Part shown: piece by piece, positions 1-14,219 of the stretch | Position numbering within the stretch: position 1 is the first letter of the stretch | Layout of the letters: each line of letters begins with the position of its first letter | From: Methanobacterium sp. | Lineage (GTDB): Archaea > Methanobacteriota > Methanobacteria > Methanobacteriales > Methanobacteriaceae | Direction: 5' to 3' | Assembly: GCA_003166335.1 (NCBI GenBank) | Contig: PMWA01000015.1 | Coordinates: 1 to 14,219, forward strand | Length of the DNA: 14,219 nucleotides | The notes under the pieces: model-generated | The model's database searches: none | The model's input: the letters and a program-made list of their open reading frames with translations, nothing else | What the model was told of the DNA's origin: nothing | Position numbers and translations under genes: made by a program

Positions 1-313
1 ATTCTGGGATGAGTTCGACCAGAATACTTCTGCCTTCATTATAGCAGTAATTTATGTTTTTTCCTAAAAGATTTGCTTATGATTAATGAAATAGAGCAGA
101 GACATAGTCTATGAAGATGCTCTCGGAGAAGTTTGAAATCAAACGTAAATTTAATTTACAGGGAGTAATCGCCTGTGAATCATTTATTTAAATAATATTT
201 TACTTTAAAATTTAAATTTACGATACATTTAGCTTGAAATTAGAAAATTTTTTTAACCTTCAAAATAGATAATTAATATTAAAGAAAACTATCGCAGTGG
301 AGGATTTATTTTT

Positions 314-586
314 ATGGATGATGAGTATAATAATGATGAATATAGGGATGATGATTATACGGATGAACGTGAACACCGTAGAAGAAGACGCCAAAGATAT
401 CATCGATACCGGAGAGGATTTATATTTTGGCGAGTTTTGATAATTATCATCCTAATCGTATTCCTACTCTCATTTGTATTTGGAATAAATACCGGAAGAC
501 TTTTTTTGCCTGCAATAATTATTATTTTAATATTATCACTACTTTTCAGATTGATAATTTTCCGTCCACGCAGAAGATATCAATAA
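314..586 (+). CDS. Small hypothetical membrane protein (acidic N-terminus, Arg-rich stretch, two predicted TM helices)
   Basis: 90-aa ORF with GGAGG SD at 299-303. Two hydrophobic runs (FIFWRVLIIIILIVFLLSFVFGI; LFLPAIIIILILSLLFRLIIF) are flanked by basic residues. A T-tract follows at about 609-617. Confidence 0.8.
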   Translation: MDDEYNNDEYRDDDYTDEREHRRRRRQRYHRYRRGFIFWRVLIIIILIVFLLSFVFGINTGRLFLPAIIIILILSLLFRLIIFRPRRRYQ

Positions 587-834
587 TAAAAATTATTATA
601 TTTAAAAATTTTTTTTTATTCATTTCTACTCTTTTAGGATTATAGGGATAATTCAATGGACTGAGTTAAAACTACTGGAGAAGCTTGCGGAATAATTGTG
701 AATTAAGCAAATAGTTAATAATATTTTAATCTAAAAAAAAAAATAGGATTCATTCAGGATATATTAAAAAAAAGTTACTTATTTAATTATCATACTTTCA
801 TGGATGTTATAATGTTATGAACTGGTAACTTAAT

Positions 835-842
835 AAAAAAAA
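835..842 (-). terminator. Oligo-U terminator of putative sRNA copy 1
   Basis: A8 on the plus strand (U8 in the transcript) abuts the 3' arm of the terminal stem. Confidence 0.5.
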
Positions 843-954
843 GTAATAGGGTGTTAAAAAATTTTTTAAGACCTTAAGAATATTATTTTCGTTTTTTAGA
901 GGCGGTAAAAAACTTATCAATATAAATTACTGGTCTTAATACACCCTATTACAT
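835..954 (-). ncRNA. Putative structured small RNA, copy 1 (unassigned family)
   Basis: 12-bp perfect end-to-end stem (843-854/941-952), 8-bp stem (866-873/932-939) and 8-bp inner hairpin (891-898/906-913) whose minus-strand loop is CCGCCUC. Upstream TTTATATA at 979-972 and U8 tract at 842-835 directly after the stem. No ORF. A related copy lies at 12293-12420. Ends are estimated. Confidence 0.6.
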
Positions 955-971
955 CATATTATCCGAGGTTA

Positions 972-985
972 TATATAAAGTTTAT
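972..985 (-). promoter_or_regulatory. Archaeal BRE/TATA promoter for putative sRNA copy 1
   Basis: Minus strand reads ATAAAC-TTTATATA, centred about 24 nt upstream of the 5' arm of the stem. Confidence 0.6.
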
Positions 986-1171
986 TGAAAGCTTTGAAGA
1001 ATTTATTAATCATACTATAACTTAAAAAACTACTAACAAGTAAATTTTTCGTATTATTCCTATTCCATTGAAAAATTAGAGTAAGTATTCAAATTTTTTA
1101 AATATTCCTAATATAATAATATAAAATTAAGTTTAGTTTAAACGATGAACAAAAAATTCTATAAAATCTAT

Positions 1172-2773
1172 TTATAAACGAGATGCCTTTTCATTATCTT
1201 CCCTATAAAAATATAATAAGAATATTGAAAGCATAAACACGTTATAACCTGCCCAAAAAATTATAGAAGGATAAGTAATAATATTCTCACCTTTAATCAG
1301 TCGTGATAGACCAATAGAAATAGAAACTACTAAAATGATGATTAAGAAGATATGCGGAAATACTTCTTTAAAAGAAATTTTATTTACCTTTTTTTTAGGA
1401 GTTACCTTGAATTTTAACTTTTTATTAAACAAACCATAACTGAAAGCCCGAATATAAACTGGGAAAAGGCTGAGAAACAAAGATTGTGAAAGTAAAAGTT
1501 CTTTAAGTGGATATCCTCTTTCACCTCTACTAGTTAAAGTTTGAGTGAGAACCATTACTAAAAAAACATAAAGAGGAACGTTTAAAAAACTTAAAAAAAC
1601 AGGTTTTAAGTTAAATAACAATACAGCTACTGGATACATGAGCCATACAAAAGTTGCCAACCCAATAAAATACCAGGTCCCAATCAAAACAATATACTCC
1701 CACCACTGTACAGACTTTAAACTTTTCGGTTCACTAAATAATTTACCTAACACTTTCTTAGTATTCTGAAAAGTTCCATAAGACCACCTCATCTGCTGAC
1801 CATAATAAGCTGATAAAGACGGCGGGGGCAATCCTACAGCATAAACCTTATCAATATAAATAGATTTATAACCATAAGTATGGAAAATGAAAGAAGTCGC
1901 TATATCTTCAGTTATACACTCTTCATCCATTCCACCGATTTCATTGAGATCATCTAACTTTATAAGAACATTAGTTCCGCAAATATAGGATGATCCATTA
2001 ACACATAATCCACGGCAGATATGCTTATAAAAAACATGCTGCTGAAAAGAATAAGCCAAAGCCAACCGATCCTTACTGGGTATTTCAAAATATTGAGGTG
2101 TCTGAATAAAAGTTAAAGATGAATCATTCTCCATAATTGGTATCAAATCCTGGAAAACTGACTTTTTAAGCCTGTGATCCGAATCCAAAATCAATACATA
2201 CTTAAAATCGTCATTCAAATTTTTAATAGTATCATTAATAGACCCCGCCTTAAAACCCCTAAGAGTATCCCGATACATATAATTAATATCAAGACTATTA
2301 CATATTTCAGCCGTCTCCCGCTTGATATCAGTATCAGTGGAGCTGTCCATTAAAATAACCTGGAAATTATCATAATCAACATTTTTAGCCTTTAAAATAG
2401 TTTGCTTAACCATATCTGGCTCTTCATTGAGAGTGGGAATTATAATAGCTACAGATGGTGCTTTACCAATTAATTTAAACTTCTCACCCAGGAATTGTTT
2501 ACTATACAAGGTTAAAGACTTTAAAAGATGATCCAAATAACCCACACAATGCAATCCACTATAAACAAAAGAAAATAATAAAATAATAGAAACACCTTTA
2601 TCTAGCAAGGAAAGTCCACCATTATTAATTAACGGTAAAATATTCCACAGAATAAACAACAGGATACCTAAAAGTAACATCAAAGAAAAAAAAGATATCA
2701 AAGATGAATTTAAATTATCTTTAAACAAACCAAAAAAATTAGCAGCATATTTACCGTAAAAAAAAGATTTCAT
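1172..2773 (-). CDS. Processive family 2 glycosyltransferase, cellulose synthase (BcsA/CelA)-like, membrane-bound
   Basis: 533 aa with N-terminal TM helices, FKAG, DxD (LDSDH), QTPQ, TED, QxxRW (QQMRW), the FxVTxK gating-loop motif (FKVTPK) and C-terminal TM helices. It ends just after the last TM with no PilZ domain. Confidence 0.9.
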   Translation of the reverse strand: MKSFFYGKYAANFFGLFKDNLNSSLISFFSLMLLLGILLFILWNILPLINNGGLSLLDKGVSIILLFSFVYSGLHCVGYLDHLLKSLTLYSKQFLGEKFKLIGKAPSVAIIIPTLNEEPDMVKQTILKAKNVDYDNFQVILMDSSTDTDIKRETAEICNSLDINYMYRDTLRGFKAGSINDTIKNLNDDFKYVLILDSDHRLKKSVFQDLIPIMENDSSLTFIQTPQYFEIPSKDRLALAYSFQQHVFYKHICRGLCVNGSSYICGTNVLIKLDDLNEIGGMDEECITEDIATSFIFHTYGYKSIYIDKVYAVGLPPPSLSAYYGQQMRWSYGTFQNTKKVLGKLFSEPKSLKSVQWWEYIVLIGTWYFIGLATFVWLMYPVAVLLFNLKPVFLSFLNVPLYVFLVMVLTQTLTSRGERGYPLKELLLSQSLFLSLFPVYIRAFSYGLFNKKLKFKVTPKKKVNKISFKEVFPHIFLIIILVVSISIGLSRLIKGENIITYPSIIFWAGYNVFMLSIFLLYFYREDNEKASRL

Positions 2774-2930
2774 AATGAATATTAATTTATATTTAAGTGA
2801 AATAAACTCTTTCCCATTTAAAAAAAAATTAGTTATAAAACTCTGTTTTCCAAATAAATAGTCTTAGGGAATTTATAGGTTCAATTATAAAATAAATCTT
2901 TTAAAAATACCATTAATTTTTGATAAAGTT

Positions 2931-3074
2931 TTATCTAGATTTTTTTTGCAAGCGGTTTCTGAACCTAACTAACAATAGTATTATTACAGTAATTACAATG
3001 ATAAGGATAATTCCCCATATCACTAAGGCTGCAGCACCAAATAATCCATTAACTATGCTTTGAAGTATACCCAT
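2931..3074 (-). CDS. Small single-pass membrane protein, 47 aa (absent from ORF track)
   Basis: Hand translation: MGILQSIVNGLFGAAALVIWGIILIIVITVIILLLVRFRNRLQKKSR*. Clean ATG-TAA, long hydrophobic helix and basic C-terminal tail. No SD, so possibly leaderless. Confidence 0.7.
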   Translation of the reverse strand: MGILQSIVNGLFGAAALVIWGIILIIVITVIILLLVRFRNRLQKKSR

Positions 3075-3344
3075 AATAATATAATTGGTTCTATTAAGTT
3101 AATTAATTTAATCTTTTTAATCCAAAAATTTAGAGGTGTAATCTAAAATCCGATGAAAAGATATATCAGTGGATATGCATTCCATTTTTTTATTCTTGTG
3201 ATTAATCAAAAAAATTAGTTCAAACACAAAATTATCAAAAAAAGTTCTAAAATATTTTCATGAAAATAGTGTTACATTGTTCACAAACCGATACTTCCTA
3301 TTTAAGAGTTTAAATTCCTTTTTTGAAGGATTTTCTAATTTTAT

Positions 3345-4055
3345 TTATTTTTTAATTCCCGCATAAATAGCTAATTCGAAACATTTAAAATAACAATCAA
3401 CATCGCTGAATCCTATTTCCTTCAACCAATCACACTGAGTCGTAACCGGTAAAAGTATGTTATCATATTGATCTGGTCGATTCACATATTCACTCATTAA
3501 ATCATTTTTACTCTTCTCTTTACCTTCCATTTTCAATTTAGCGTGGCGTGTATCGACTATAAGTTCATTGAAAAGAGAATTCCCAAATTTACTTACGCTC
3601 GCCACGTGATCTATATTTACGAATATACCACCTGGTGATAATGTTTCAAATATTTCTTCAAATAATTCATATTTCCGTCCGTTTTTCAGATGGTGAATAG
3701 CATATCCACTCATGACTACATCGGGTTTACTTATAATGTTATCTTGCCAATTACTTTTTGATAAGTCAGATTGAATAATTATCTGATTGGGGAAAGCACT
3801 CATCCGATCTTTAGCAGCATCAATCATGCTAGGTGAATAATCAAGTAATAATCCATGAGCATCAGGATACCGTGTCAATAAGGTATTTGCAAGAATTCCA
3901 TCCCCACAACCAAGGTCAATAAAGTTATTGACAACAGTCTGAGATTTTGAAATTAACCGGAGTAATATATCGAACTGTTCAATCCCAAAAGGTAAAGATT
4001 TTCTAGTATTCGTTAAGAAATTATCAACAATTGATGGGTTCTTCCAAGCGTCCAT
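3345..4055 (-). CDS. Class I SAM-dependent methyltransferase (CmoA/Methyltransf_25-like), substrate unknown
   Basis: Motif I FIDLGCGDG, LDYSPSM, DVVMSGYAIHHL, LSPGGIFVNID, and C-terminal WLKEIGFSDVDCYFK. Confidence 0.9.
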   Translation of the reverse strand: MDAWKNPSIVDNFLTNTRKSLPFGIEQFDILLRLISKSQTVVNNFIDLGCGDGILANTLLTRYPDAHGLLLDYSPSMIDAAKDRMSAFPNQIIIQSDLSKSNWQDNIISKPDVVMSGYAIHHLKNGRKYELFEEIFETLSPGGIFVNIDHVASVSKFGNSLFNELIVDTRHAKLKMEGKEKSKNDLMSEYVNRPDQYDNILLPVTTQCDWLKEIGFSDVDCYFKCFELAIYAGIKK

Positions 4056-4289
4056 TTTTTTATTTTCCCTACCACGTTTTTTTATGCATTTGAATCTATT
4101 TTTAATTAGTAAGTTAATTTAAATAATTCTTTTGTTCAATCCTAACATTTTTTACTAAATTTTTTTGTTTTAACAAATATTCGGGGGTTTATGTTTCTAA
4201 AATAATATATTCAAAAATAAATAGTGAAGTTTATATTAATGACTTTTTTAAATATTAATTAGAGATTTAAAAAGGTGTGTTTATAAACT

Positions 4290-4589
4290 ATGGCTGATGA
4301 TGAGAATTTTGATAAGGAAGATTCAGATGATTTTGAAAAAGAAATTATTGACTTTATAGAGGATTGCTGGGTTTCTATCGTTAAGAACGATAAACTTGAT
4401 TCTAACCAAAAAGGAAAAATATTGAATTTTATTGATACAATAGATGATGATTCTGTTGCACATGGTTATGTTAATGAGATATTTAGGATCTATTCAGATG
4501 TTTTACGTTATTTATATGAAGGATATTTCGTTAACAAGGAAGAGAAAAGGGAACAATGGGTTAACTTTAAACAAACAGGATCATATTAA
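4290..4589 (+). CDS. Hypothetical acidic protein
   Basis: 99-aa ORF with AGGTG SD-like sequence at about 4273-4277. No recognisable motif. Confidence 0.75.
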   Translation: MADDENFDKEDSDDFEKEIIDFIEDCWVSIVKNDKLDSNQKGKILNFIDTIDDDSVAHGYVNEIFRIYSDVLRYLYEGYFVNKEEKREQWVNFKQTGSY

Positions 4590-4675
4590 ATCTTAAAAAA
4601 TATGAATTTTAAATAATTAAAAATATTCATAATTTTTTAGAATGTTCAAATTATCTTAATATTATGGTGTGAAAA

Positions 4676-4831
4676 ATGGTGATAGAAGATGATTTGGATG
4701 ATAATGATAAAAAAGAAGCAATTCAAGATTATTCTAAGAAGAAGAGACGAGAAAGAAGTAGTTTAATAGGTATAATACTAATTATTATAATACTTTTCTT
4801 TTCATATTTATTATTCATCGCTAAAATTTAA
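4676..4831 (+). CDS. Small tail-anchored membrane protein, 51 aa (absent from ORF track)
   Basis: Hand translation: MVIEDDLDDNDKKEAIQDYSKKKRRERSSLIGIILIIIILFFSYLLFIAKI*. GGTGTGA SD-like sequence just upstream. Acidic, then basic, then TM layout. Confidence 0.75.
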   Translation: MVIEDDLDDNDKKEAIQDYSKKKRRERSSLIGIILIIIILFFSYLLFIAKI

Positions 4832-5159
4832 TTCAATCAGGTATTACTTTTTGATCACTTCAAATTAGACTCTGATTGGTTGGCATTTGCTTGATTTTTA
4901 ATCTAATATTATTCTTTTATATTACTTTTCCAGTAAGCTGCGTTATTCAACAAGTCAGTGAAAATGTTTAATTCACTAAAATATAGAAAAACTATATAAA
5001 TAAGGAAAAAACAAAAAAAATAATGTAGGACTATACTAAAAAAAATAATTAATTATTTTTTTAAAATTTACTACTCGAAAAGATTAAGGAATTAAATTTT
5101 TAATCCATTCTCAAAAATAAGGAGTAATAAATTTTTTTTTATTGATAAAGTGATTTTTT

Positions 5160-5729
5160 ATGATTGATGAAACTGAACGTAAAATTTTAGATGCTGCTTT
5201 AAAACTATTCGCTAAAAAAGGATACACTGACGCTACCGCTATAGCTATAGCGGATAAAGCAGGTTTTAATGAAAAAACTATATTCCGTAAATTTAAAACC
5301 AAAAAAAATCTATATAACCAAGTTTTAAAATTGAATGCTGAGAAGTTTATGCAAGAACTTAGTGAATTTGTATTTGTTGATAAAAAATTTGATACAACCA
5401 CCGACTTTTTAGAGCATTACATCAAAAATGCTACTAAAGTATATTGGGATAATTTCGAATTTTTTAATTTATCCATCAATGCACCAAATGAAAAACTTGA
5501 ACCTACTATGGAGAATACTACTAATTTTGTAGGTGAATATTTAGAAAAAAATATTCCCAATCAAAAAATAGATTACAGAATATTCGGCATCACCATTCAT
5601 GCATTTATATACGCTATAAATGTTGAGAGATTTCAAGGACGCACCTACATTAACTATGATGATGCTATAGAAAAATTCATAAGCAACACTATCCACTGCA
5701 TATCAAACATCCCCTCGATAGACCCTTAA
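5160..5729 (+). CDS. TetR/AcrR family transcriptional regulator (1 of 4)
   Basis: N-terminal TetR HTH: ILDAALKLFAKKGY...IADKAGFNEKTIFRKFKTKKNLY. Confidence 0.93.
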   Translation: MIDETERKILDAALKLFAKKGYTDATAIAIADKAGFNEKTIFRKFKTKKNLYNQVLKLNAEKFMQELSEFVFVDKKFDTTTDFLEHYIKNATKVYWDNFEFFNLSINAPNEKLEPTMENTTNFVGEYLEKNIPNQKIDYRIFGITIHAFIYAINVERFQGRTYINYDDAIEKFISNTIHCISNIPSIDP

Positions 5730-5799
5730 AAAAAAATATTAAAGCTGAAAATAAAAAAAATGGATTATTTTAATTAAGTTTGGTAAATAGGTTAATATT

Positions 5800-6357
5800 A
5801 TGGCTGATAAAACGGAGCAGAAAATTTTAGATTCTTCTTTAAAACTATTCGCTAAAAAAGGCTATGATGCATCCACTACCATAGCTTTAGCCGAGGAATC
5901 GGGTTATACGGAGATGACGTTGTTCAGGATATTTAAAACTAAAAAAAATCTTTTTGATCAAGTCATGATTCGCGGTATAACAAAGATGCAAGAAGATGCC
6001 CATAAACTGTTATTTATAGATAAAAAATATGAAAACCCCCGTGATTTCTTAGAAACTTATCTCATAAATATTCTGAAATTTGCTCAGGATAATTTTGAAA
6101 TCTTTCATTTAACAATCATTGAAGATAGCTCAATGGGTGAATCTTTTCAAGCAGAAGTTAACGACGCTGTAGCTGCATATATTAAAAAAAATTTGCCAAA
6201 CCAAAAAATAGATTACAGAACCTATGGAATTACTATAACTACATTTGTATATGTACTCAATCTTGAAAAATATCACGGACGTACTGCTACTTTTGGTGAA
6301 CAAGAAGATAATATTATAGAAAACTTCATAGACCTCTTATATTGTATGATTAATTAA
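5800..6357 (+). CDS. TetR/AcrR family transcriptional regulator (2 of 4)
   Basis: HTH: ILDSSLKLFAKKGY...LAEESGYTEMTLFRIFKTKKNLF. Confidence 0.93.
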   Translation: MADKTEQKILDSSLKLFAKKGYDASTTIALAEESGYTEMTLFRIFKTKKNLFDQVMIRGITKMQEDAHKLLFIDKKYENPRDFLETYLINILKFAQDNFEIFHLTIIEDSSMGESFQAEVNDAVAAYIKKNLPNQKIDYRTYGITITTFVYVLNLEKYHGRTATFGEQEDNIIENFIDLLYCMIN

Positions 6358-6446
6358 ACATTATTAAATCTTGGTTTGCATTTCTCCTTATTATCTTCTC
6401 TTTTGAAATAAAAAAATTAATATTTATTGTGAAAAGTTGATTTATT

Positions 6447-7001
6447 ATGACTAATAAAACTGAGCAGATAATTTTAGATGCTGGTTTAAAAGAATTTGCA
6501 AAAAAAGGATACGATGCCACCACCACCCGAACTATAGCCAAAACGTCAGGTTTCACTGAGACTACTATATTCAGAAAATTTGGAAGTAAAAAAAATCTTT
6601 ATAATGAAATTATAGGTTATGGTGTGAAAAAACTTGAATATGCATATTATTCACTTCAAGTTTTAAATCAAAAATATAAGGATCCAACAGATTTTTTAGA
6701 AGCATTTGTTAAAACACTAGCCAAGATTAGATTAGATCATATTGAAATTTTTACTTTATTAGTCAATGAAGATAATTTACAATACGATTCTAAACTGGGT
6801 GAAGTTAATTATTTTATAAGTGAATTAATTAAAAATAATATCCCAGACATTAAAGTAGATCCTAACGTCCTGGGACTAACCATAGGTATATTTGTATACG
6901 CAATCGATGTAGATAAGTATCATGGTCGGATTAATGATATTACCTATGAAGAAACATTACAAAAATTCATAGGTAATCTTATGCTATGTTTTGAACAATA
7001 A
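6447..7001 (+). CDS. TetR/AcrR family transcriptional regulator (3 of 4)
   Basis: HTH: ILDAGLKEFAKKGY...IAKTSGFTETTIFRKFGSKKNLY. Confidence 0.93.
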   Translation: MTNKTEQIILDAGLKEFAKKGYDATTTRTIAKTSGFTETTIFRKFGSKKNLYNEIIGYGVKKLEYAYYSLQVLNQKYKDPTDFLEAFVKTLAKIRLDHIEIFTLLVNEDNLQYDSKLGEVNYFISELIKNNIPDIKVDPNVLGLTIGIFVYAIDVDKYHGRINDITYEETLQKFIGNLMLCFEQ

Positions 7002-7163
7002 AAACAATAAATTCATAATAATTTTTTTATTTCTACATATCAAACTTTTTTTTAAATAAATCGAAATAAATTAGAGTTTACCAATAACTCTTCTAAAATT
7101 TAGTAATTGTCGATTAATATTTTATTAATCATTTTTTGGTATAAGTGAATTTTTTTAGTTAAC

Positions 7164-7190
7164 TTTATATAGGGTGCGTGAAGACATACC
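7164..7190 (+). promoter_or_regulatory. TATA box plus candidate operator upstream of TetR 4
   Basis: TTTATATA at 7164-7171 is followed by the imperfect palindrome GGTGCGT-GAAG-ACATACC (7173-7190). Its core GTGAAGACAT recurs at 7914-7923. Confidence 0.55.
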
Positions 7191-7203
7191 ATTAGAGATT
7201 GTT

Positions 7204-7773
7204 ATGATTGATGAGACTGAACGTAAATTATTAGATGCTGCATTAAAAATATTCTCTAAAAAAGGATATACTGACGCTACAACTATAGCTATAGCGGATG
7301 AAGCAGGTTTTAATGAGAAAACTTTGTTTCGTAAATTTAAAACTAAAAAAAATCTTTATGACCAAGTTTTATCACTGAATGCAGAGAAGTATAAAAAAGA
7401 GCTTTATGAATACTTATTTGTCGATCGAAAATTTGATACACCCCAAGACTTTTTAGAGCATTATATCAAAAATTCAGCCAAAGTAAATTGGAATAATTTC
7501 GAATATGTTAATTTATCTCTACAAAAATCAAAGGGAATAATCGAACCGGTTATGAAAGACAATGTTGACTTTACAAGTGAATATTTCGAAAAAAATATCC
7601 CCCATCAAGAAATTGATCACAAAACATTAGGCATCTCCATACACGCATTCATATACGCTTTAAATACTGAGAGATTTCAAGGAAGCAACTACATTAATTA
7701 TGAGGAAACCCTAGAGAAATTCATTAATAACAACATCCAAATCATAAACACCCCTAATATGGAAGTTAAATAA
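7204..7773 (+). CDS. TetR/AcrR family transcriptional regulator (4 of 4); start revised to ATG 7204
   Basis: MIDETERKLLDAALKIFSKKGY aligns from residue 1 with TetR 1 (MIDETERKILDAALKLFAKKGY). The GTG at 7174 lies 3 nt after the TATA box and is unlikely to be transcribed. Confidence 0.92.
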   Translation: MIDETERKLLDAALKIFSKKGYTDATTIAIADEAGFNEKTLFRKFKTKKNLYDQVLSLNAEKYKKELYEYLFVDRKFDTPQDFLEHYIKNSAKVNWNNFEYVNLSLQKSKGIIEPVMKDNVDFTSEYFEKNIPHQEIDHKTLGISIHAFIYALNTERFQGSNYINYEETLEKFINNNIQIINTPNMEVK

Positions 7774-7900
7774 AAAAACCTTAATTATTAACTAGTATTA
7801 TATTTATTAATTATTTTCCTAACTTCTAAATTTTTTGTTTATTTTTGAATTTATGAGTCCGTATTTTTTTTTACATAATAAATTTTTTTTTAGATAACTA

Positions 7901-7935
7901 TTTATATAAGTCAGTGAAGACATGCTAAGTGAAGA
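7901..7935 (+). promoter_or_regulatory. TATA box plus candidate operator upstream of the adhesin-like gene
   Basis: TTTATATA at 7901-7908 is followed by AGTCAGTGAAGACATGCT. AGTGAAGA occurs as a direct repeat at 7913-7920 and 7928-7935. Confidence 0.55.
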
Positions 7936-7982
7936 TCTAAAAAATTTAAAAAAAATTTATGTAAAATAGGGGAGAAAATAAT

Positions 7983-9998
7983 ATGATTACATCTAATTAT
8001 AGTAAAAGATTAGGTTTCCTGATATTTGGCCTGGCTTTTACTTTGGTGATGTGTGGTGCTGCATTTGCAGCCCCAACGAATTCTACGCACGTTAATTTGA
8101 ATCAGAGCGTAAACCATACAACAAACCAATTAAATACAACTACAAACACAAAATTACCGGATCCGCAGGTTTATAATGGTCACACATATGAAGGTACTTA
8201 CAATACAATCGCTGATGCTATTAATGCTGCAAAAAGCGGGGACACCATATGGCTTGCAAGTGGTACAACTTTTGATGAACACGGCTTAACCGTTAGTAAA
8301 AATTTGGATTTCAATGTATTTAACAATGGCACAGCTACTATAAACGCCCAAGGTAAAGGGCAAGTATTCTTCATAGTGGGTAGTGTAACTGTCGAACTAG
8401 AGAATTTAATATTAGAAAATGGTAAGGCAACTGATGGTGGAGCGATCGGTAATGTTGGTGTTTTGACGGTAAAAGACTGCACTTTCAAAGATAACACTGC
8501 AACTAGTGATGGTGGTGCTATCAGTAATGATGGTGTTTTGACTGTTAATAAAAGCACTTTCACGGGTAACACTGCAACAGGTGCTAATGGTGATGGTGGT
8601 GCTATCTATAATCAACCGATGGGTTTCACTCTGATCGGTAGTACTTTCACAGGTAACAGTGCCAATTATGAGGGTGGTGCTGTCTACAATGATGGTGGTG
8701 CTTTGAATCAACCCGTGAAAATATCAGGCAACACTTTCACCGGTAACAAAGCATTCTACGGTGGTGCTATCTACAATGACTATGATGCTATTATGACTGT
8801 AACCGACAGTAACTTCAAAGATAATACTCATGGTGGAGTAGGTGGTGCTATCTTCAATAATGGAATTACTTTGAATGTAAAGGGCAGCAATTTCACGGGT
8901 AACCAAGCAAATTATGGTGCTGGTGCTATCTACAATAGTGATTTCAGTGCTTTAACTGTAACCAGCAGCAATTTCACCGGTAACACTGCTGGTGGAGGTG
9001 GAGGTGCCATCATGAATAATGGTAACTTAACTTTAAGCAGCAGCACATTAATAAGTAACACTATAACCGGTTCTAATGGTGAGGGTGGCGCTATCTTCAA
9101 TGTAGGTAATGCTGCAGTACATTTCAATCGAATTGTAGATAACTCTGCAAGTCAAGGTAATGATATCTACAATTTCGATAGCGGAAAAATGAATGCAACA
9201 CTTAACTGGTGGGGATACAACAGCCAAATTAACATTGCTAATCAAATAGACAACAAAGGAGTTAGCTTAACCTATAATCCCTGGATTGTATTATCCATAC
9301 AAGCCAATCCAGTTAATGCAATTGTAGGGGGACATCCCATTATAAACGCTGCCCTACTATTTGCTAGTAATAGTGAATATTATCCAGCTACCGGTATAGT
9401 ACCTTACACAGGATCAGCGAATTTTAAAACCACTAAGGGAACTATTAAAAACAGTAATTTCTCTAATGGAGTATCTGGATCTACTTTAACTGATTTGACC
9501 ACAGCTGAAGTGGTTACCGTCTTTACAACAGTGGACCATCAAACCGTATCCAAAAAAGTTTATGTTACTGGTGCAACCATCAGTCAATTGATAAGTTCAG
9601 CGGCGTATGTTAAAAACTACTACGAGTTACATGGTGTTTTACCTTCCCATATAACCATCTTTGGTCAAACTATAACCATGCCTCAATTCCTAACATTACT
9701 GGTTACTGGAACATTAAACATTAAAAATGGTAATTTAAACCCATTACCAGTACTCACAGTTAACCCGGCATCTAATCCATCCGGAAACTTTACTACAGGT
9801 AAAATTTACAAATCAGAGTACTTATCCATTGCTCAGACTATTAAAAACTATATCTCGGCTAATGGAAAAGTACCTAACAATGCCACTACCAGTCTGGGTA
9901 CTATACCCTTCAGTAAACTAGTGTACAGTTACAGTAAAATCATAAACTACTACGGTGTAAACAAAGAATTACCTAACTACGTTAGCGCAGCAACATAA
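7983..9998 (+). CDS. Secreted adhesin-like surface protein: right-handed beta-helix (GGAIxN repeats) with C-terminal pseudomurein-binding-type repeats
   Basis: Signal peptide (KRLGFLIFGLAFTLVMCGAAFA), N/T-rich linker, repeated GGA(I/V)xN...F(T/K)(G/D)N units, NWWG motif, and C-terminal repeats (VKNYYELHGVLPSHITI; IKNYISANGKVPNNAT; IINYYGVNKELPNYV) typical of Methanobacteriales PMBR proteins. GGGGAG SD upstream and T-tract downstream. Confidence 0.88.
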   Translation: MITSNYSKRLGFLIFGLAFTLVMCGAAFAAPTNSTHVNLNQSVNHTTNQLNTTTNTKLPDPQVYNGHTYEGTYNTIADAINAAKSGDTIWLASGTTFDEHGLTVSKNLDFNVFNNGTATINAQGKGQVFFIVGSVTVELENLILENGKATDGGAIGNVGVLTVKDCTFKDNTATSDGGAISNDGVLTVNKSTFTGNTATGANGDGGAIYNQPMGFTLIGSTFTGNSANYEGGAVYNDGGALNQPVKISGNTFTGNKAFYGGAIYNDYDAIMTVTDSNFKDNTHGGVGGAIFNNGITLNVKGSNFTGNQANYGAGAIYNSDFSALTVTSSNFTGNTAGGGGGAIMNNGNLTLSSSTLISNTITGSNGEGGAIFNVGNAAVHFNRIVDNSASQGNDIYNFDSGKMNATLNWWGYNSQINIANQIDNKGVSLTYNPWIVLSIQANPVNAIVGGHPIINAALLFASNSEYYPATGIVPYTGSANFKTTKGTIKNSNFSNGVSGSTLTDLTTAEVVTVFTTVDHQTVSKKVYVTGATISQLISSAAYVKNYYELHGVLPSHITIFGQTITMPQFLTLLVTGTLNIKNGNLNPLPVLTVNPASNPSGNFTTGKIYKSEYLSIAQTIKNYISANGKVPNNATTSLGTIPFSKLVYSYSKIINYYGVNKELPNYVSAAT

Positions 9999-10012
9999 AT
10001 TTTTAATTATCT

Positions 10013-10030
10013 ATTTTTTTATTTTTTTTT
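10013..10030 (+). terminator. Oligo-T terminator after the adhesin-like gene
   Basis: T7-A-T9 tract about 15 nt after the stop codon. Confidence 0.5.
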
Positions 10031-10373
10031 AAGTATCTTAATAAACCTATTTTAGTTTTCTCTGTTTTCATATGTTTTTTAATCAATAATTCTCACATAC
10101 TACTTTATTCAGGATTAAGGTCAGATTTCTCTTCTGCACATCTTAAACTCTGCTTATAGTGTTGTGATTTGTCTTAAAAGTTCTTAATAGATTAATGAAT
10201 TTTGGTGATTATAAATTTTTACGGGGAAGAGTTGAAAGATTTTTTTTTAGTAGAAAATTTAATGAAGAATAAAACTATAAATATAATAGTTGAACATTTA
10301 TTTTTTGGGAATTGAGGTAAAATAGAAATTTAAATTATTAAATTGAAATTTTTTTTGTTGGAGGTTAATTTAA

Positions 10374-10733
10374 ATGAAAGTTAAAAATGCTGTTGTAGCT
10401 GTTGAAGATTTGGATGAGTCTGCTAGTTTTTATACTGACATTTTGGGAATGGATGAGACTAGACGATTCAGTCCTCGGCCTGGTTTGACCATTGCCTTCT
10501 TCCAGGGGGAAGGGGAAGCCACGATTGAACTTATTGAAGGTGAAGAAGATGGTAAGAAAGGCTTATATATGGTGGGTATGGAAGTAGTGGATATGGATGC
10601 TGAATTGGAGGTTTTAAAGTCAAAAGGAGTAGTATTAACTCGTGGACCGTTCGGTGCACCTGGCGGTCCTAGAATTGCCTTTTTGGATGGTCCGGATGGT
10701 GTGGAAATAGAGCTGATTGAACATATAAAATAA
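10374..10733 (+). CDS. VOC (glyoxalase/bleomycin resistance) family protein
   Basis: VEDLDESASFYTDILGM, IELIE and IAFLDGPDGVEIELIE motifs. GGAGG SD upstream. Confidence 0.9.
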   Translation: MKVKNAVVAVEDLDESASFYTDILGMDETRRFSPRPGLTIAFFQGEGEATIELIEGEEDGKKGLYMVGMEVVDMDAELEVLKSKGVVLTRGPFGAPGGPRIAFLDGPDGVEIELIEHIK

Positions 10734-10849
10734 TAATCATGTTCAATTTTTTGCATATTCTACCGATTAAACCCACCGGTAACATATTAATTCCCTGATA
10801 CAATTGTTTAGGAGAAGTAAAGTGTTAAGATTGAAGGGGTGTATTATAA

Positions 10850-11155
10850 GTGGTAAATATGTATTTTTGTGGTGATGTGGATTGGGAATATTTTAAAAAA
10901 GATTCGAGTTATGCGTTGATAAATTATTATAAATATCTTATTGAAGGTAATACTCTTTCTTCTGAGCAACTTGATGAAATCAGACTTCTTATTTCTGATG
11001 TTGTTTCAATTAATGATTTATCAGATGATGAAGTAGTTATTAGGGATTATATTGTTAAGGAATTGAAGAGTTTGATTTATCGGAATTATGAGTTAACAGG
11101 TGAGATTCCAGATTTCGTATCAAAATATCAGAAGAAGGATAAATCTAAAGATTAA
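10850..11155 (+). CDS. Hypothetical protein
   Basis: 101-aa ORF (GTG 10850, or in-frame ATG at 10859) with GGGGTG SD-like sequence upstream and a T-tract after the stop. No motif recognised. Confidence 0.7.
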   Translation: MVNMYFCGDVDWEYFKKDSSYALINYYKYLIEGNTLSSEQLDEIRLLISDVVSINDLSDDEVVIRDYIVKELKSLIYRNYELTGEIPDFVSKYQKKDKSKD

Positions 11156-11271
11156 ATACATTTTTTTTGATTATTCCTTAAAAGAAATTTTTTTGAATAA
11201 CTTAAAATTTATTTAGTAAAAAATTTATTTAATGTAATTCACTTGTGGAATTGTGGGAGGGATTCACAAAA

Positions 11272-11562
11272 ATGATCATAGTAAATGCTACTATTGCTGT
11301 TAAGCCTGGTGAGAGGGATAATATTATTTTGAAAAGTAATGATTTAATTGAATCTACTCGTTTAGAAGCGGGTTGTATTAGTTATAATTTATTTGCTAGC
11401 ACTGAAGATGATGATATTTTAGTGATGTTTGAGCAATGGGATAATTTTGAGGATTTAGAGTCGCATATGCAAACTGAGCGTTTTCAAGCGTATATAGAGG
11501 CTATTGAGGATATGATTGATAAAGATATTGATATAGCGGTTTATTCGGCTGATAAAATATAA
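11272..11562 (+). CDS. ABM-family putative quinol monooxygenase; start revised to ATG 11272
   Basis: MIIVNATIAVKPG...TRLEAGCISYNL...FEQWDNFEDLESHMQT matches the ABM/YgiN pattern. GGGAGG SD at 11255-11260 precedes ATG 11272. Confidence 0.88.
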   Translation: MIIVNATIAVKPGERDNIILKSNDLIESTRLEAGCISYNLFASTEDDDILVMFEQWDNFEDLESHMQTERFQAYIEAIEDMIDKDIDIAVYSADKI

Positions 11563-11638
11563 AAAATCTCAAGTTACTTATTTTCAGAGGGGGGGTTATA
11601 TTTAAAAAAAATTAGAAGAAAAGAATTTTTTTTTTAAT

Positions 11639-12034
11639 TTAATCTTTGGGGCAATTTTTAATTATTTTCAGTTTATATTCTTTAATTTGGATGGGTTTAG
11701 ACCCGGATCTCTGATAATTCAATGTAATCAGGGTTTCTCCAGATTTAAGAGCTTTAAAAGTGAATACTTCATTACCACCTGAACCAATTAGAATAGGAGT
11801 ATTTGGTTGATAAGTTTGTTTAATTAACTTCAAATACTTGGAATTATAATTGGCTTTCCAATTATAACCTGTGGATGGATTGGTGGGTAATACTATAGTG
11901 AATTCCTGACCAACTTTAACATTCTTTATTATAGGCCCAGTAATAGTGGTTGAGGCTGCAAAAGAGCTTCCAACCATTAAACTTAGCATAAGTATGGTCG
12001 TTAATCCAAAAACTGTTGGCTTAAATATCTTCAT
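11639..12034 (-). CDS. Secreted chagasin-family (I42) cysteine peptidase inhibitor; start revised to 12034
   Basis: Signal peptide (MKIFK...SSFA), VKVGQEFTIVL, NPSTGYNW, GSGG and FTFKALKSG. GAGGTG SD at 12050-12045 precedes ATG 12034. Confidence 0.88.
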   Translation of the reverse strand: MKIFKPTVFGLTTILMLSLMVGSSFAASTTITGPIIKNVKVGQEFTIVLPTNPSTGYNWKANYNSKYLKLIKQTYQPNTPILIGSGGNEVFTFKALKSGETLITLNYQRSGSKPIQIKEYKLKIIKNCPKD

Positions 12035-12292
12035 AAAACTATCACACCTCATTCTGAAAAATAATTTTATGAAATCTTTCTATGTTCTATATAATTTAAT
12101 ATTTATAATTTATTACAAAAATTTGAACTTTGACTACATTCTTGAATGACTAATCATAAGTTCATTTGGTGAAAACTAAAAATTTGCAGATATAAGAAAT
12201 TTCTGTGGTTTAAGAATTTTAAAACCCTAATAGGTTATTTTTATGAAATTGCTTTATTTTATTAGTAGTTATAAAAAACCTAGAATGAAAAT

Positions 12293-12420
12293 AAAAAAAG
12301 TTGGGTGCATTATTGTTTTTTTTATTTTTTTTATATTTTTTTTATTATATTTTTTTTTGGAAGGCGTTAAAATTTTATAATTTAAATATATAAATTTAGT
12401 TTCTTAATGCACCCTAAATA
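12293..12420 (-). ncRNA. Putative structured small RNA, copy 2 (unassigned family)
   Basis: 10-bp perfect end-to-end stem (12303-12312/12405-12414). 14/15 identity to copy 1 over 12402-12416 vs 934-948. Central CGCCU motif (plus-strand AGGCG at 12362-12366), TTTATAAG at 12446-12439 and U7 tract at 12299-12293. Ends are estimated. Confidence 0.55.
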
Positions 12421-12438
12421 CTAATAATATAATTATTA

Positions 12439-12449
12439 CTTATAAAGTT
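12439..12449 (-). promoter_or_regulatory. Archaeal TATA promoter for putative sRNA copy 2
   Basis: Minus strand reads AAC-TTTATAAG. The TATA start is 32 nt from the GGGTG arm, against 33 nt in copy 1. Confidence 0.55.
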
Positions 12450-12757
12450 AATTATTAATTTTATAGGATATAAGTAATATTATAAACTGTTTTTTATTAA
12501 ACAGATTTAACTTTAAATCATTACAAGATAAGGGTTCTGTAGAGTTTATAAAACCCAGCAATAAAGGGTTCCTTTTTTTAGAAAAAAAAATATTAGTAAT
12601 AGGAAATTTATTTATAAATCTAGAAATGCAAATTTTTTAGATTGATTCTTTTATATGTAATTTAAAAGAAAAAAATGGTTAGCAAATGATAATTTTTTCT
12701 TTATAAAATAAGTCACATTTCTCTTAAAACATTTTTTTAAAGTAGGAGTGATTATAA

Positions 12758-13432
12758 ATGGAGTGTAAATTAAAGGCAGTAGCGCTTGATGTGGATGGTA
12801 CTATAACTGATGAAACAAGAAGAGTATGTGTTAATGCAGTTAATGCTATTTATCGGGCTGAAAATGGTGGAATTCCCATTATATTTGTAACAGGTAATGT
12901 TCTGTGTGTCGCTAAAGCATTATCTATATTTTTAGGTACTACGGGTGGTTTGGTAGCTGAAAATGGTGGTGTAATTGAATCCGGGATTAGAAATAAGATT
13001 TTGGGTAATGTTAAGGAATGTGAAGATGCTTATGAGTTTCTCAAATCAAAGTTTGATGTTACTAGGAGGGTTTTATCTGATGATAGAGTTTCTGAAGTGG
13101 CTATTGAACGAACAATACCAGTAGAACTTGTTAGGGAAGCGGTTAAGGATTTTAATGTGGTGGTGTATGATTCTAAATTCGCGATTCATTTAACTGATCC
13201 TTTGGTGGATAAAGGATCTTCTTTGGAGATGGTATGTTCTGATTTGGGTTTAAAAACGGATGAGATTTTAGCTATTGGTGATGGTGAGAATGATATAGAA
13301 TTTTTAAGGGTTGCTGGTGTGAAAGTGGCTGTTAATAATGCCGATGAGAACCTTAAGGATATAGCAGATTATATAACTGTCAAGCCTTATGGTGATGGAG
13401 TGGCGGAAGCAATGGAGAGATTCATATTATAA
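12758..13432 (+). CDS. Phosphoglycolate phosphatase, archaeal HAD subfamily IIB (SPP-like/TA0175-type)
   Basis: Motif I DVDGTIT, motif II VTGN, AENGG, VDKG and motif IV IGDGENDIEF. AGGAGTGA SD upstream. Confidence 0.9.
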   Translation: MECKLKAVALDVDGTITDETRRVCVNAVNAIYRAENGGIPIIFVTGNVLCVAKALSIFLGTTGGLVAENGGVIESGIRNKILGNVKECEDAYEFLKSKFDVTRRVLSDDRVSEVAIERTIPVELVREAVKDFNVVVYDSKFAIHLTDPLVDKGSSLEMVCSDLGLKTDEILAIGDGENDIEFLRVAGVKVAVNNADENLKDIADYITVKPYGDGVAEAMERFIL

Positions 13433-14219
13433 ATGAGGAATGATGTAAATTGATTACAAATTTTAATTTAATTTTTTTTGAGAGGATTTCTCTGTTTTAT
13501 AAATAAATTTGGCTATGATGGTTACGTTAGAATGGTTCATAAACGAATTTGAGTTGCATTTGAAGGTAAATTTTAGATATTAATTTTTTTTGATTCAAAA
13601 AATTTTCGAATCTGTCAAGCATAAATAGTTTTTTTTAATTGACTCTTATTACTTGGAGTAAGGATTTTGAGAATGAAATAGCTAATTTAAAATTCACAAA
13701 ATTAGAATCACTGTTATAAAAATATTTATATGAGTAAAGAGGAGAAAATAACGTTATTTGGTTAAAAATTAATATATTTAATAGGGGAGTTGGATAAGAG
13801 AGATTTATCAGAAATTGCACAGAGAAGTTTTTTTATTTTAATGATTAAATATTTAGATTTTTTAAATAAGGAAAATGTGGAATTGTTTTCAAGCAGAAGA
13901 GGAGTGATGAAGAAATTTTATTCATAGATCCCATTGTGGAGGAATGGAAAGGATAAAATTTAATTTAAGAATAGTAAATTAGTAATTATAATTTTAAAAA
14001 TAGTAATATTTATTGTCTAGGAATTTTTAGTTAAAAAAAGTTTAATGTAAAAAAATAATGGTTTTTGTTTTCATGAAAATTTGACTAAAGAACTAAAATT
14101 CTCTTAGTCTATAAATTTCAAGAAAACATTTTTTTTCAGGATATTTAAATTAAAAAAAAGTTTGTTATTTAGAATTTTTTTATTTTATTCTACTACTTCT
14201 GCAAAAGCAAAATTTCTTC

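Follow-up and report, generated by a model that had tools for sequence, protein, structure and literature searches.

A window of 14,219 nucleotides (nt) from Methanobacterium sp. (contig PMWA01000015.1 of assembly GCA_003166335.1, positions 1 to 14,219 of the forward strand; contig C26 in our notation) carries two related elements on its minus strand, at 835-985 (copy 1) and 12293-12449 (copy 2), in a source genome of 2.49 Mb with 32% GC. We propose, with a probability of about 0.6, that these elements encode sibling small RNAs (sRNAs), which act in trans and block the translation initiation of a regulon of secreted cell-wall and cell-wall-remodelling proteins. Transcription of each RNA would begin at a TATA promoter of its own and stop at an oligo-U tract, and the RNA would fold, as predicted, into a long hairpin, the GC-clamped base of which may protect the ends while the tip exposes a C-rich seed. 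The seed would pair with the sequence GGAGGCGGUAWAAUU of secreted cell-wall genes, to which its complementarity is conserved, and the pairing would keep the ribosome off, so that potentially lytic proteins would be turned down; repression as the direction of control is proposed by analogy.

The two elements of the window

A sequence-only reading of the window had described a shared minus-strand layout with five features, all of which were located in both elements: a TATA box, starting 33 nt (copy 1) or 32 nt (copy 2) ahead of GGGTG; a 15-nt 5' motif; a 3' arm pairing back on this motif, with the compensatory pairs 941/854 and 12409/12308; a CGCCT island, within 899-906 in copy 1 and 12359-12367 in copy 2; and a U tract, consisting of eight T at 835-842 and seven T at 12293-12299. 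With up to one mismatch allowed, the 15-mer occurs at two places only in the whole genome, namely the two elements. Folding z-scores were -5.29 for copy 1 (0 of 200 shuffles as good) and -2.32 for copy 2 (3 of 200 shuffles as good), and in its predicted fold each copy is one long hairpin, GC-clamped at the base, with the CGCC island in the apical loop. The CGCCT island is likely to be a functional seed with its own target family, a point absent from the sequence-only reading. The features of both copies are given below, together with the evidence for each; the start of copy 1 was placed by the usual archaeal spacing from the TATA box.

972-985, minus strand: copy 1 promoter, a purine-rich stretch like a transcription factor B recognition element plus the TATA box (TTTATATA); from the sequence, with the TATA word in all family members
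835-952, minus strand: predicted copy 1 RNA, ~118 nt, putative start near 950-953; from the fold and from orthologues downstream of a GT2 gene
941-952, minus strand: copy 1 closing stem, 5' arm; from the fold and covariation
843-854, minus strand: copy 1 closing stem, 3' arm; from the fold and covariation
932-939, minus strand: copy 1 inner stem, 5' side, with its partner at 866-873; predicted fold
892-912, minus strand: copy 1 apical hairpin, with the seed ACCGCCUC at 899-906 and a probability of being unpaired, P(unpaired), of 1.00
835-842, minus strand: copy 1 oligo-U, terminator-like tract; from the sequence
12439-12449, minus strand: copy 2 promoter (TTTATAAG), worded like the promoters of several target genes; from the sequence
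12293-12420, minus strand: predicted copy 2 RNA, ~128 nt; from the fold and homologues
12405-12414, minus strand: copy 2 closing stem, 5' arm, with its partner at 12303-12312; predicted fold
12359-12374, minus strand: copy 2 seed region, made up of ACGCCUUCC (12359-12367) and the neighbouring AAUUUUA, P(unpaired) 0.97
12293-12299, minus strand: copy 2 oligo-U, terminator-like tract; from the sequence

The copy 1 seed ACCGCCUC is complementary to GAGGCGGU in target start regions. According to duplex prediction, the copy 2 seed together with AAUUUUA would span both the Shine-Dalgarno (SD) sequence and the AUU codon of its best target.

A family of predicted RNAs in Methanobacteriaceae

The sequence-only reading took the elements to be two paralogous, independently promoted non-coding RNAs of ~115-130 nt, and this is supported by 26 homologues in unrelated contexts and by covariation at four pairs. 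The working set comprises 26 members in 18 Methanobacteriaceae genomes, with one to three in each and no Rfam match; the members are related by descent, and counts among them are not independent. The hint of the sequence-only reading at more copies genome-wide fails for this scaffold, of which the source genome has only the two.

Members were collected by BLAST and patterns, then by two successive covariance models, and finally by an inverted-repeat pattern. BLAST and patterns yielded copy-1 and copy-2 orthologues in close relatives; with copy 1 as query, true homologues were found in 4 of 150 other genomes, the remaining matches at E<=0.1 being AT-rich noise. A covariance-model search of relatives, which the sequence-only reading had recommended, found members in further Methanobacteriaceae genomes: the first model in 14 of the 19 genomes of the source genus, while the second, applied under strict filters, added 3 of the 17 genomes in a second genus and nothing in the remaining genera. 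One extra member (G145) came from a loose inverted-repeat pattern. Such patterns were rejected as family finders, their matches being mostly chance and in coding DNA, and so was the short pattern GGGTGYATTAAG as a family marker, which matched 32 of 151 genomes with inspected matches beyond the close clade in coding or unrelated sequence. Among pattern matches in GTDB contigs, 13 of 33 pass the family model, all of them named Methanobacterium or Methanobacteriaceae, and none of the 20 from non-methanogens passes; in metagenomes 12 of 30 pass, many of them identical to known members, and 18 fail.

A TATA-like word stands 32-35 nt upstream in 26/26 members and on the opposite strand in 0/26, the word list having been fitted after the members had been seen, and a U-tract follows the GGGUGY/RCACCC closing stem in 25/26 members (opposite strand, 0/26). 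The C-rich loop (ACCGCCUC, or ACGCCUUCC in copy 2) is exposed in most members, with a predicted P(unpaired) of the seed of at least 0.65 in 24 of 26. In an alignment of 19 members, pairing was found in 91% of cells, against 42-58% in slid controls; 4 of 13 pairs had changed on both sides, among them a change from U-A to G-C at the loop neck in six related sequences, and the covariation score was reached by 0 of 500 shuffles. As to the idea that the 15-nt motif is selectively retained, family-wide conservation is limited to the loop, the 3' arm, AGGGTGYA and a TTAAG-like word and does not extend to the whole 15-mer. A GT2 gene precedes the copy-1 types, a HAD hydrolase neighbours 6 of 8 copy-2 types, and other members sit amid unrelated genes; the element is therefore not the cis-leader of one gene family.

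Predicted target genes and their start block

The loops resemble an anti-SD sequence, and start regions were therefore scanned for duplexes. In a scan of 2324 predicted start regions carried out without guidance, the top matches included two paralogous secreted-protein genes carrying PMBR domains, the SD regions of which match the two loops and diverge at the same place as these do, GGCGGU corresponding to copy 1 and GGCGUU to copy 2. The target block, GGAGGCGGUAWAAUU, combines a non-canonical SD with an apparent AUU start and is complementary to the seed loop. In an exact-match survey of 171 Methanobacteria genomes, the motif GAGGCGGTWWWATTAA was present in 77, with three hits for the reversed motif used as a control. 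It was found in 12/12 genomes of group g1, 17/17 of g13, 15/15 of g26, 8/9 of g19, 3/3 of g25 and 9/9 of family f3; the same exact search found it in 0/42 of g5, 0/13 of g3, 0/10 of g14 and 0/5 of g17. Every genus in which a seed-RNA family was found also has the target block.

At 56 of 63 distinct fetched sites, a frame running from ATT encodes basic residues and then a hydrophobic stretch, like a signal peptide; the seven misses comprise two sites on the other strand of a seed hairpin and five short or cut frames. Ten viral matches of the motif showed no signal-peptide frames. The first ATG, GTG or TTG is scattered over codons 3-15, and in 6 of the 56 none occurs within the first 30 codons. 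Because of this scatter, AUU is the apparent start codon of the motif-bearing genes. AUU initiation is thereby predicted for the whole gene set, and annotation limited to ATG, GTG and TTG would therefore clip signal-peptide N-termini.

The source-genome set carries pseudomurein-binding repeats, several proteins also having transglutaminase-like or BPL_N domains, and one predicted target has a weak Peptidase_C71 match below the cut-off. Ten further products were scanned, of which six have PMBR, two PG_binding_1 with Transglut_core, one DUF4015 and one no match. Since the domain content varies in this way (PMBR, PG_binding_1 with Transglut_core, DUF4015), the motif marks a cell-wall function rather than a single protein family; the targets are presumptive hydrolases.

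A shared leader was observed in C20, C28, C30, C39, C95 and C96 and at 50+ sites in relatives (L123-L197). It comprises a TATA box, ~50-60 nt with a stem ending just ahead of GGAGGCGGT, and then ATT as the apparent start. The predicted stem ends just before the SD in 54 of 56 leaders; RNAalifold gave no consensus structure for a MAFFT alignment of 18 target leaders, so that the stem rests on single-sequence folds. The SD itself is predicted to be only partly free, with a median P(unpaired) of 0.47 and values of at least 0.7 in 5 of 56. A target-type SD followed by ATA was also seen at C16:14942 (minus strand), ahead of a 160-codon frame, which we take to be of HNH/AP2 type, in a provirus-like region.

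Predicted pairing ranks and proposed specificity

In a rescan of 2329 start regions with ATT starts set by hand, copy 1 ranked C30 and C28 first, C20b third, C96 sixth, C95 eighth and C20a ninth, and copy 2 ranked C20a first and C39 fifth. The reference set consisted of 10 Pfam-defined PMBR genes with the 5' end on their own contig. The top 20 for each copy held 4 of these 10 genes (p~1e-6, an optimistic value, given that the motif was already known when ATT start sites and seed windows were selected), which shuffled seeds equalled in 0 of 40 cases, and the plain 16S tail placed 0 of 10 in its top 20. Whole-molecule cofolding gave -7.2 kcal/mol with C20b and -5.5 kcal/mol with C30 for copy 1, and -10.0, -7.6 and -7.3 kcal/mol with C20a, C20b and C39 for copy 2. 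Copy 1 best fits the common GGAGGCGGU targets, and copy 2 the GGAGGGCG and GGGGGCGUU variants. The best partner of copy 1 without PMBR is a gene at C11:14114 (minus strand, L301), which encodes a 651-aa secreted protein with an ATG start and the SD GGAGGCGGT.

The 16S tail of the source genome is not assembled, and five relatives were used for comparison, in four of which the 16S end is GATCACCTCCT. Specificity would stem from a single position: relative to this end, the RNAs carry G in place of the ribosomal A, and the targets carry C in place of the U of an ideal SD. The seed G is invariant in 26/26 members; its replacement by A in copy 1 in silico lowered the best PMBR ranks from 1, 3, 9 and 19 to 10, 12, 16 and 24; and GAGGCGGT lies upstream of only 4 of the 2324 starts called at ATG, GTG or TTG.

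Other hairpins with the same seed

GAGGCGGT occurs 36 times in the source genome; outside called genes, several occurrences are target SDs and several are the opposite strand of seed hairpins. Three further hairpins of the source genome share the seed.

C81:17480-17600 (L296, L144), plus strand: hairpin with a G-rich/C-rich closing stem, then a U-tract; 16-nt perfect complement of the target SD and AUU
C108:13450-13600 (L298, L316, L317), minus strand: seed-in-loop hairpin 3' of a gene, with a strong terminator hairpin directly after it
C37:14050-14250 (L297, L309-L313, L321), minus strand: C37 family hairpin with a TATA box, invariant TTCGC and ACCGCCTCCG

The C81 hairpin scores 26.6 bits (E 0.032) against the family model; it is kept in G063, and its seed is altered in the G131 orthologue. 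The gene ahead of the C108 hairpin is presumably small heat-shock-like, and the seed is kept in two of five relatives. A similar layout was seen at L324, L330 and L159, with the hairpin just past the gene end at least in C108 and L330; hairpins of this type are candidates for sRNAs that stem from a 3' untranslated region (UTR). The C37 family, which has no Rfam match, is present with a covarying closing stem in 5/5 relatives and occurs in 30 of 171 genomes. In many targets, codons 2-4 are complementary to its word TTCGC (AAG CGA in 18 of 56). Of the arguments that favour RNA-RNA pairing rather than protein binding, this two-part match, by seed and by codons 2-4, is the strongest. The 5' part of the C37 hairpin has a TTAAGAC-like word, as does the window family, and the two may therefore be distantly related.

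Similar seed hairpins occur in other species. At C50:70150-70350 (L299), the seed lies in a minus-strand loop near a gene that we take to be Alba-like; the opposite strand reads SD-ATG-TAA, which makes the strand ambiguous. The seed hairpin at L162 and L175 (G138, G109) was dropped as an sRNA, because it is the leader of the downstream gene: a long, very stable and possibly cis-acting leader hairpin with CCGCCTCC, followed by what are presumably a small regulator-like gene and an ABC ATPase-like gene.

Weighing of the explanations

Repression by trans-acting sibling sRNAs has to be held against a number of observations. Transcription of the RNAs is deduced from the DNA itself, and in 19 of 26 members the better fold is that of the reverse complement; since folding energy does not fix the strand, the strand call rests on the asymmetry of promoter and U-tract. 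The seed variant AUACUGCCCUCC, present in four members, needs a bulge for pairing and has no perfect start-site target in five g13 genomes (30 loci inspected), and in members with a UUUAACCGCCUC or AAAAACCGCCUCC loop the match is limited to the 8-9 nt core. The rank statistics are to some extent circular, the motif having been in view when starts and seed windows were picked; three to four of the 10 PMBR genes rank below 140; and the window's own PMBR adhesin gene (7983-9998) ranks 811 and 1244 and is not a predicted target. Ordinary genes score no more than 2-4 kcal/mol behind the best targets and take most places in the top 20, and cofolding was weak for copy 1 with C20a (+0.1 kcal/mol), copy 2 with C30 (-1.2 kcal/mol) and copy 1 with C39 (-2.9 kcal/mol). 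In C20a, C39 and C30, moreover, an ATG in the same frame lies farther upstream. Finally, f3 (9/9), g25 (3/3) and g19 (8/9) carry the target block, and searches with the family model and for the C37 family gave 0 seed-RNA matches there and a single candidate hairpin (L230). The block may therefore be conserved for a reason of its own; it may have been conserved first for AUU initiation and exploited later by the RNAs.

The same pairing could have the opposite sign, the RNAs activating or stabilising AUU-start mRNAs by nuclease protection or leader remodelling, or serving as an initiation adaptor at a weak SD and AUU. As a start codon, AUU is weak; the target SD mismatches the 16S tail and is only partly free behind a stem that ends just before it, and promoter wording is common to copy 2 and several targets. 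In addition, Methanosarcina mazei sRNA154 stabilises some of its targets, as stated in the part of a review consulted here (PMC5867862). We nevertheless consider activation unlikely, given that the SD lies within the duplex, as does the start codon in the case of copy 2 and C81, an arrangement that sterically fits repression, and that the leader stem excludes the SD in most predicted folds. Equally unlikely in our view are loops that work as CsrB-style sponge or decoy sites for a protein reading CCGCCUC, with a secondary match to mRNAs: the same short word does occur in the loops of several scaffolds, some of them in 3' UTRs, and flank variation does not always extend pairing, yet the mRNAs carry the complement instead of the same word, the complementarity reaches AUU in copy 2 and C81 and codons 2-4 in the C37 family, and each RNA has one loop, whereas sponges typically have repeated sites. 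We give rather less credence to general anti-SD RNAs, which would pair with many G-rich ribosome-binding sites (RBSs) by G-U wobble and not with the cell-wall regulon (GGAGGCGG genes) in particular. Their case draws on the close-scoring ordinary genes and on the ability of G to pair with U as well as C, and is countered by the invariant seed G, by the loss of copy 1 PMBR ranks on its replacement by A, and by the rarity of GAGGCGGT ahead of called starts.

A miniature inverted-repeat transposable element (MITE), or another relic at the DNA level with no functional RNA, appears very improbable. MITEs with a TA duplication are of the IS630/Tc1-mariner type, and the elements resemble them in being short, bounded by the terminal inverted repeats GGGTGY/RCACCC, often flanked by TA, and set in unrelated contexts. 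In contrast to such MITEs, however, they show no constant target-site duplication (TA at both flanks in 13/26 only), number one to three per genome instead of many dispersed copies, and keep positions that are orthologous across species. The conserved TATA word (26/26) and U-tract (25/26) have a uniform orientation and stand beyond the repeats; the interior has drifted around an unchanging loop, and there is covariation in the inner stem. Least probable of all is a functional plus strand, either as an SD-bearing leader or as a mini open reading frame (ORF). This strand reads GAGGCGGT or GGAAGGCGTT, is the better folder in the 19 members noted above, and in copy 2 has an ATT-TTA-TAA frame behind the SD; but a TATA word or U-tract in its orientation is found in 0/26, copy 1 is without a start codon at SD spacing, and the stem variants of copy 1 in G100, G117 and G154 form G-U on the minus strand and an A-C mismatch on the plus strand. 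Even jointly, we hold these last two readings to be improbable, and place them behind general anti-SD pairing.

Trans-acting repression thus remains the preferred reading, beside which a wider proposal can be put forward tentatively, as one that we are somewhat inclined to doubt. The structured leader, the SD differing by one base and AUU might together form a private translation code of pseudomurein-walled archaea for their secreted cell-wall-remodelling genes, in which several scaffolds of separate build feed different signals into one translational master switch of the cell wall; the window family, the C37 family and the 3'-UTR hairpins, including the one behind the presumed small heat-shock gene, would all carry an "orthogonal anti-SD".

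Neighbouring genes

The genes beside the two elements are not part of the RNAs.

1172-2773, minus strand: GT2 glycosyltransferase, upstream of copy 1; linked in eight copy-1-type members
12758-13432, plus strand: HAD hydrolase, divergent neighbour of copy 2; linked in 6 of 8 copy-2-type members

At 314-586 lies an ORF for a 90-aa membrane protein, the N-terminus of which is acidic and then arginine-rich, and which is also found beside copy 1 in four relatives. A domain scan gave it no family above the cut-off; there is no overlap with copy 1, and the ORF is absent from the listed top duplex partners. The elements do not match a type I antitoxin, which would be expected to have a linked small toxin gene with extended complementarity; their neighbours vary between members. 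A chagasin-family (I42) inhibitor gene at 11639-12052 stands between copy 2 and the ABM gene, and was absent from the corresponding place in the five relatives inspected. Four tandem, similar TetR-type regulator genes occupy 5160-7773, the first of them confirmed as TetR_N. Twenty peat or permafrost RNA runs match some part of 600-3300 of the window by small word shares; these runs were not used as support.

Comparison with known systems

The absence of a match to known families, as claimed from the sequence alone, was borne out. A scan of the window against Rfam 15 up to E 10 gave four weak matches, none on either element; 12 loci of homologues and other seed hairpins gave no Rfam match, and 10 target-leader loci gave a single chance match. 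ARAGORN found no tRNA or tmRNA genes. As for C/D box guides, a C-box-like word is present only in copy-1 types, at or before the putative start, and CTGA is in neither copy. By computation, the elements have what trans-acting sRNAs are expected to have: a promoter and terminator of their own (TATA 26/26, U-tract 25/26) in unrelated contexts, and a single-stranded seed complementary to conserved start regions, imperfectly so in the four variant-seed members.

Our literature searches found no report describing the RNA family, the leader motif or AUU initiation for these genes, and no described regulatory sRNA for Methanobacteriales, most subscription journals and the supplements of motif surveys lying outside their coverage. 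The main text of PMC5737381 contains no word beginning with Methano, and the review PMC5867862 contains none beginning with Methanobacter. The control of enzymes that cut and rebuild pseudomurein in Methanobacteriales is a largely open field, to which we offer a concrete circuit: RNA loci, a one-base specificity rule and a one-motif target list across 77 of 171 genomes. Wall hydrolases are also of interest for lysing methanogens.

On the target side, PMBR domains bind pseudomurein, and the prophage lysins PeiW and PeiP have a transglutaminase-like catalytic triad, according to the portion of PMC2989375 available to us. Several predicted targets likewise have transglutaminase-like domains; they differ from PeiW and PeiP in their signal peptides, varied domains and common structured leader, and in that their hydrolase activity is presumed.

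On the RNA side, the part of PMC4132741 consulted describes LhrC1-5 of Listeria monocytogenes as multicopy sRNAs that bind the mRNA of a cell-wall-associated protein (LapB) through CU-rich sites, three redundant ones per RNA, and impede its translation, and that are induced by cell-envelope stress in a LisRK-dependent manner. The likeness lies in multicopy siblings with C-rich sites directed at the mRNA of a cell-wall protein, a pairing that is predicted here. LhrC is bacterial, whereas the present RNAs have one loop seed instead of three CU-rich sites, an archaeal TATA promoter, and targets whose SD is non-canonical and whose apparent start is AUU, and show no Rfam similarity to it. Among archaea, M. 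mazei sRNA154 has an anti-RBS loop, and together with sRNA41 and sRNA162 it resembles the present RNAs as an intergenic sRNA that masks RBSs in trans, as far as the parts of PMC5867862 and PMC3510493 covered here describe them; the M. mazei sRNAs differ in belonging to another methanogen order, in having metabolic targets, and in showing no match in sequence or structure. The window elements belong to a real, undescribed RNA family, which would work like LhrC and the RBS-masking sRNAs of M. mazei and is a member of neither.

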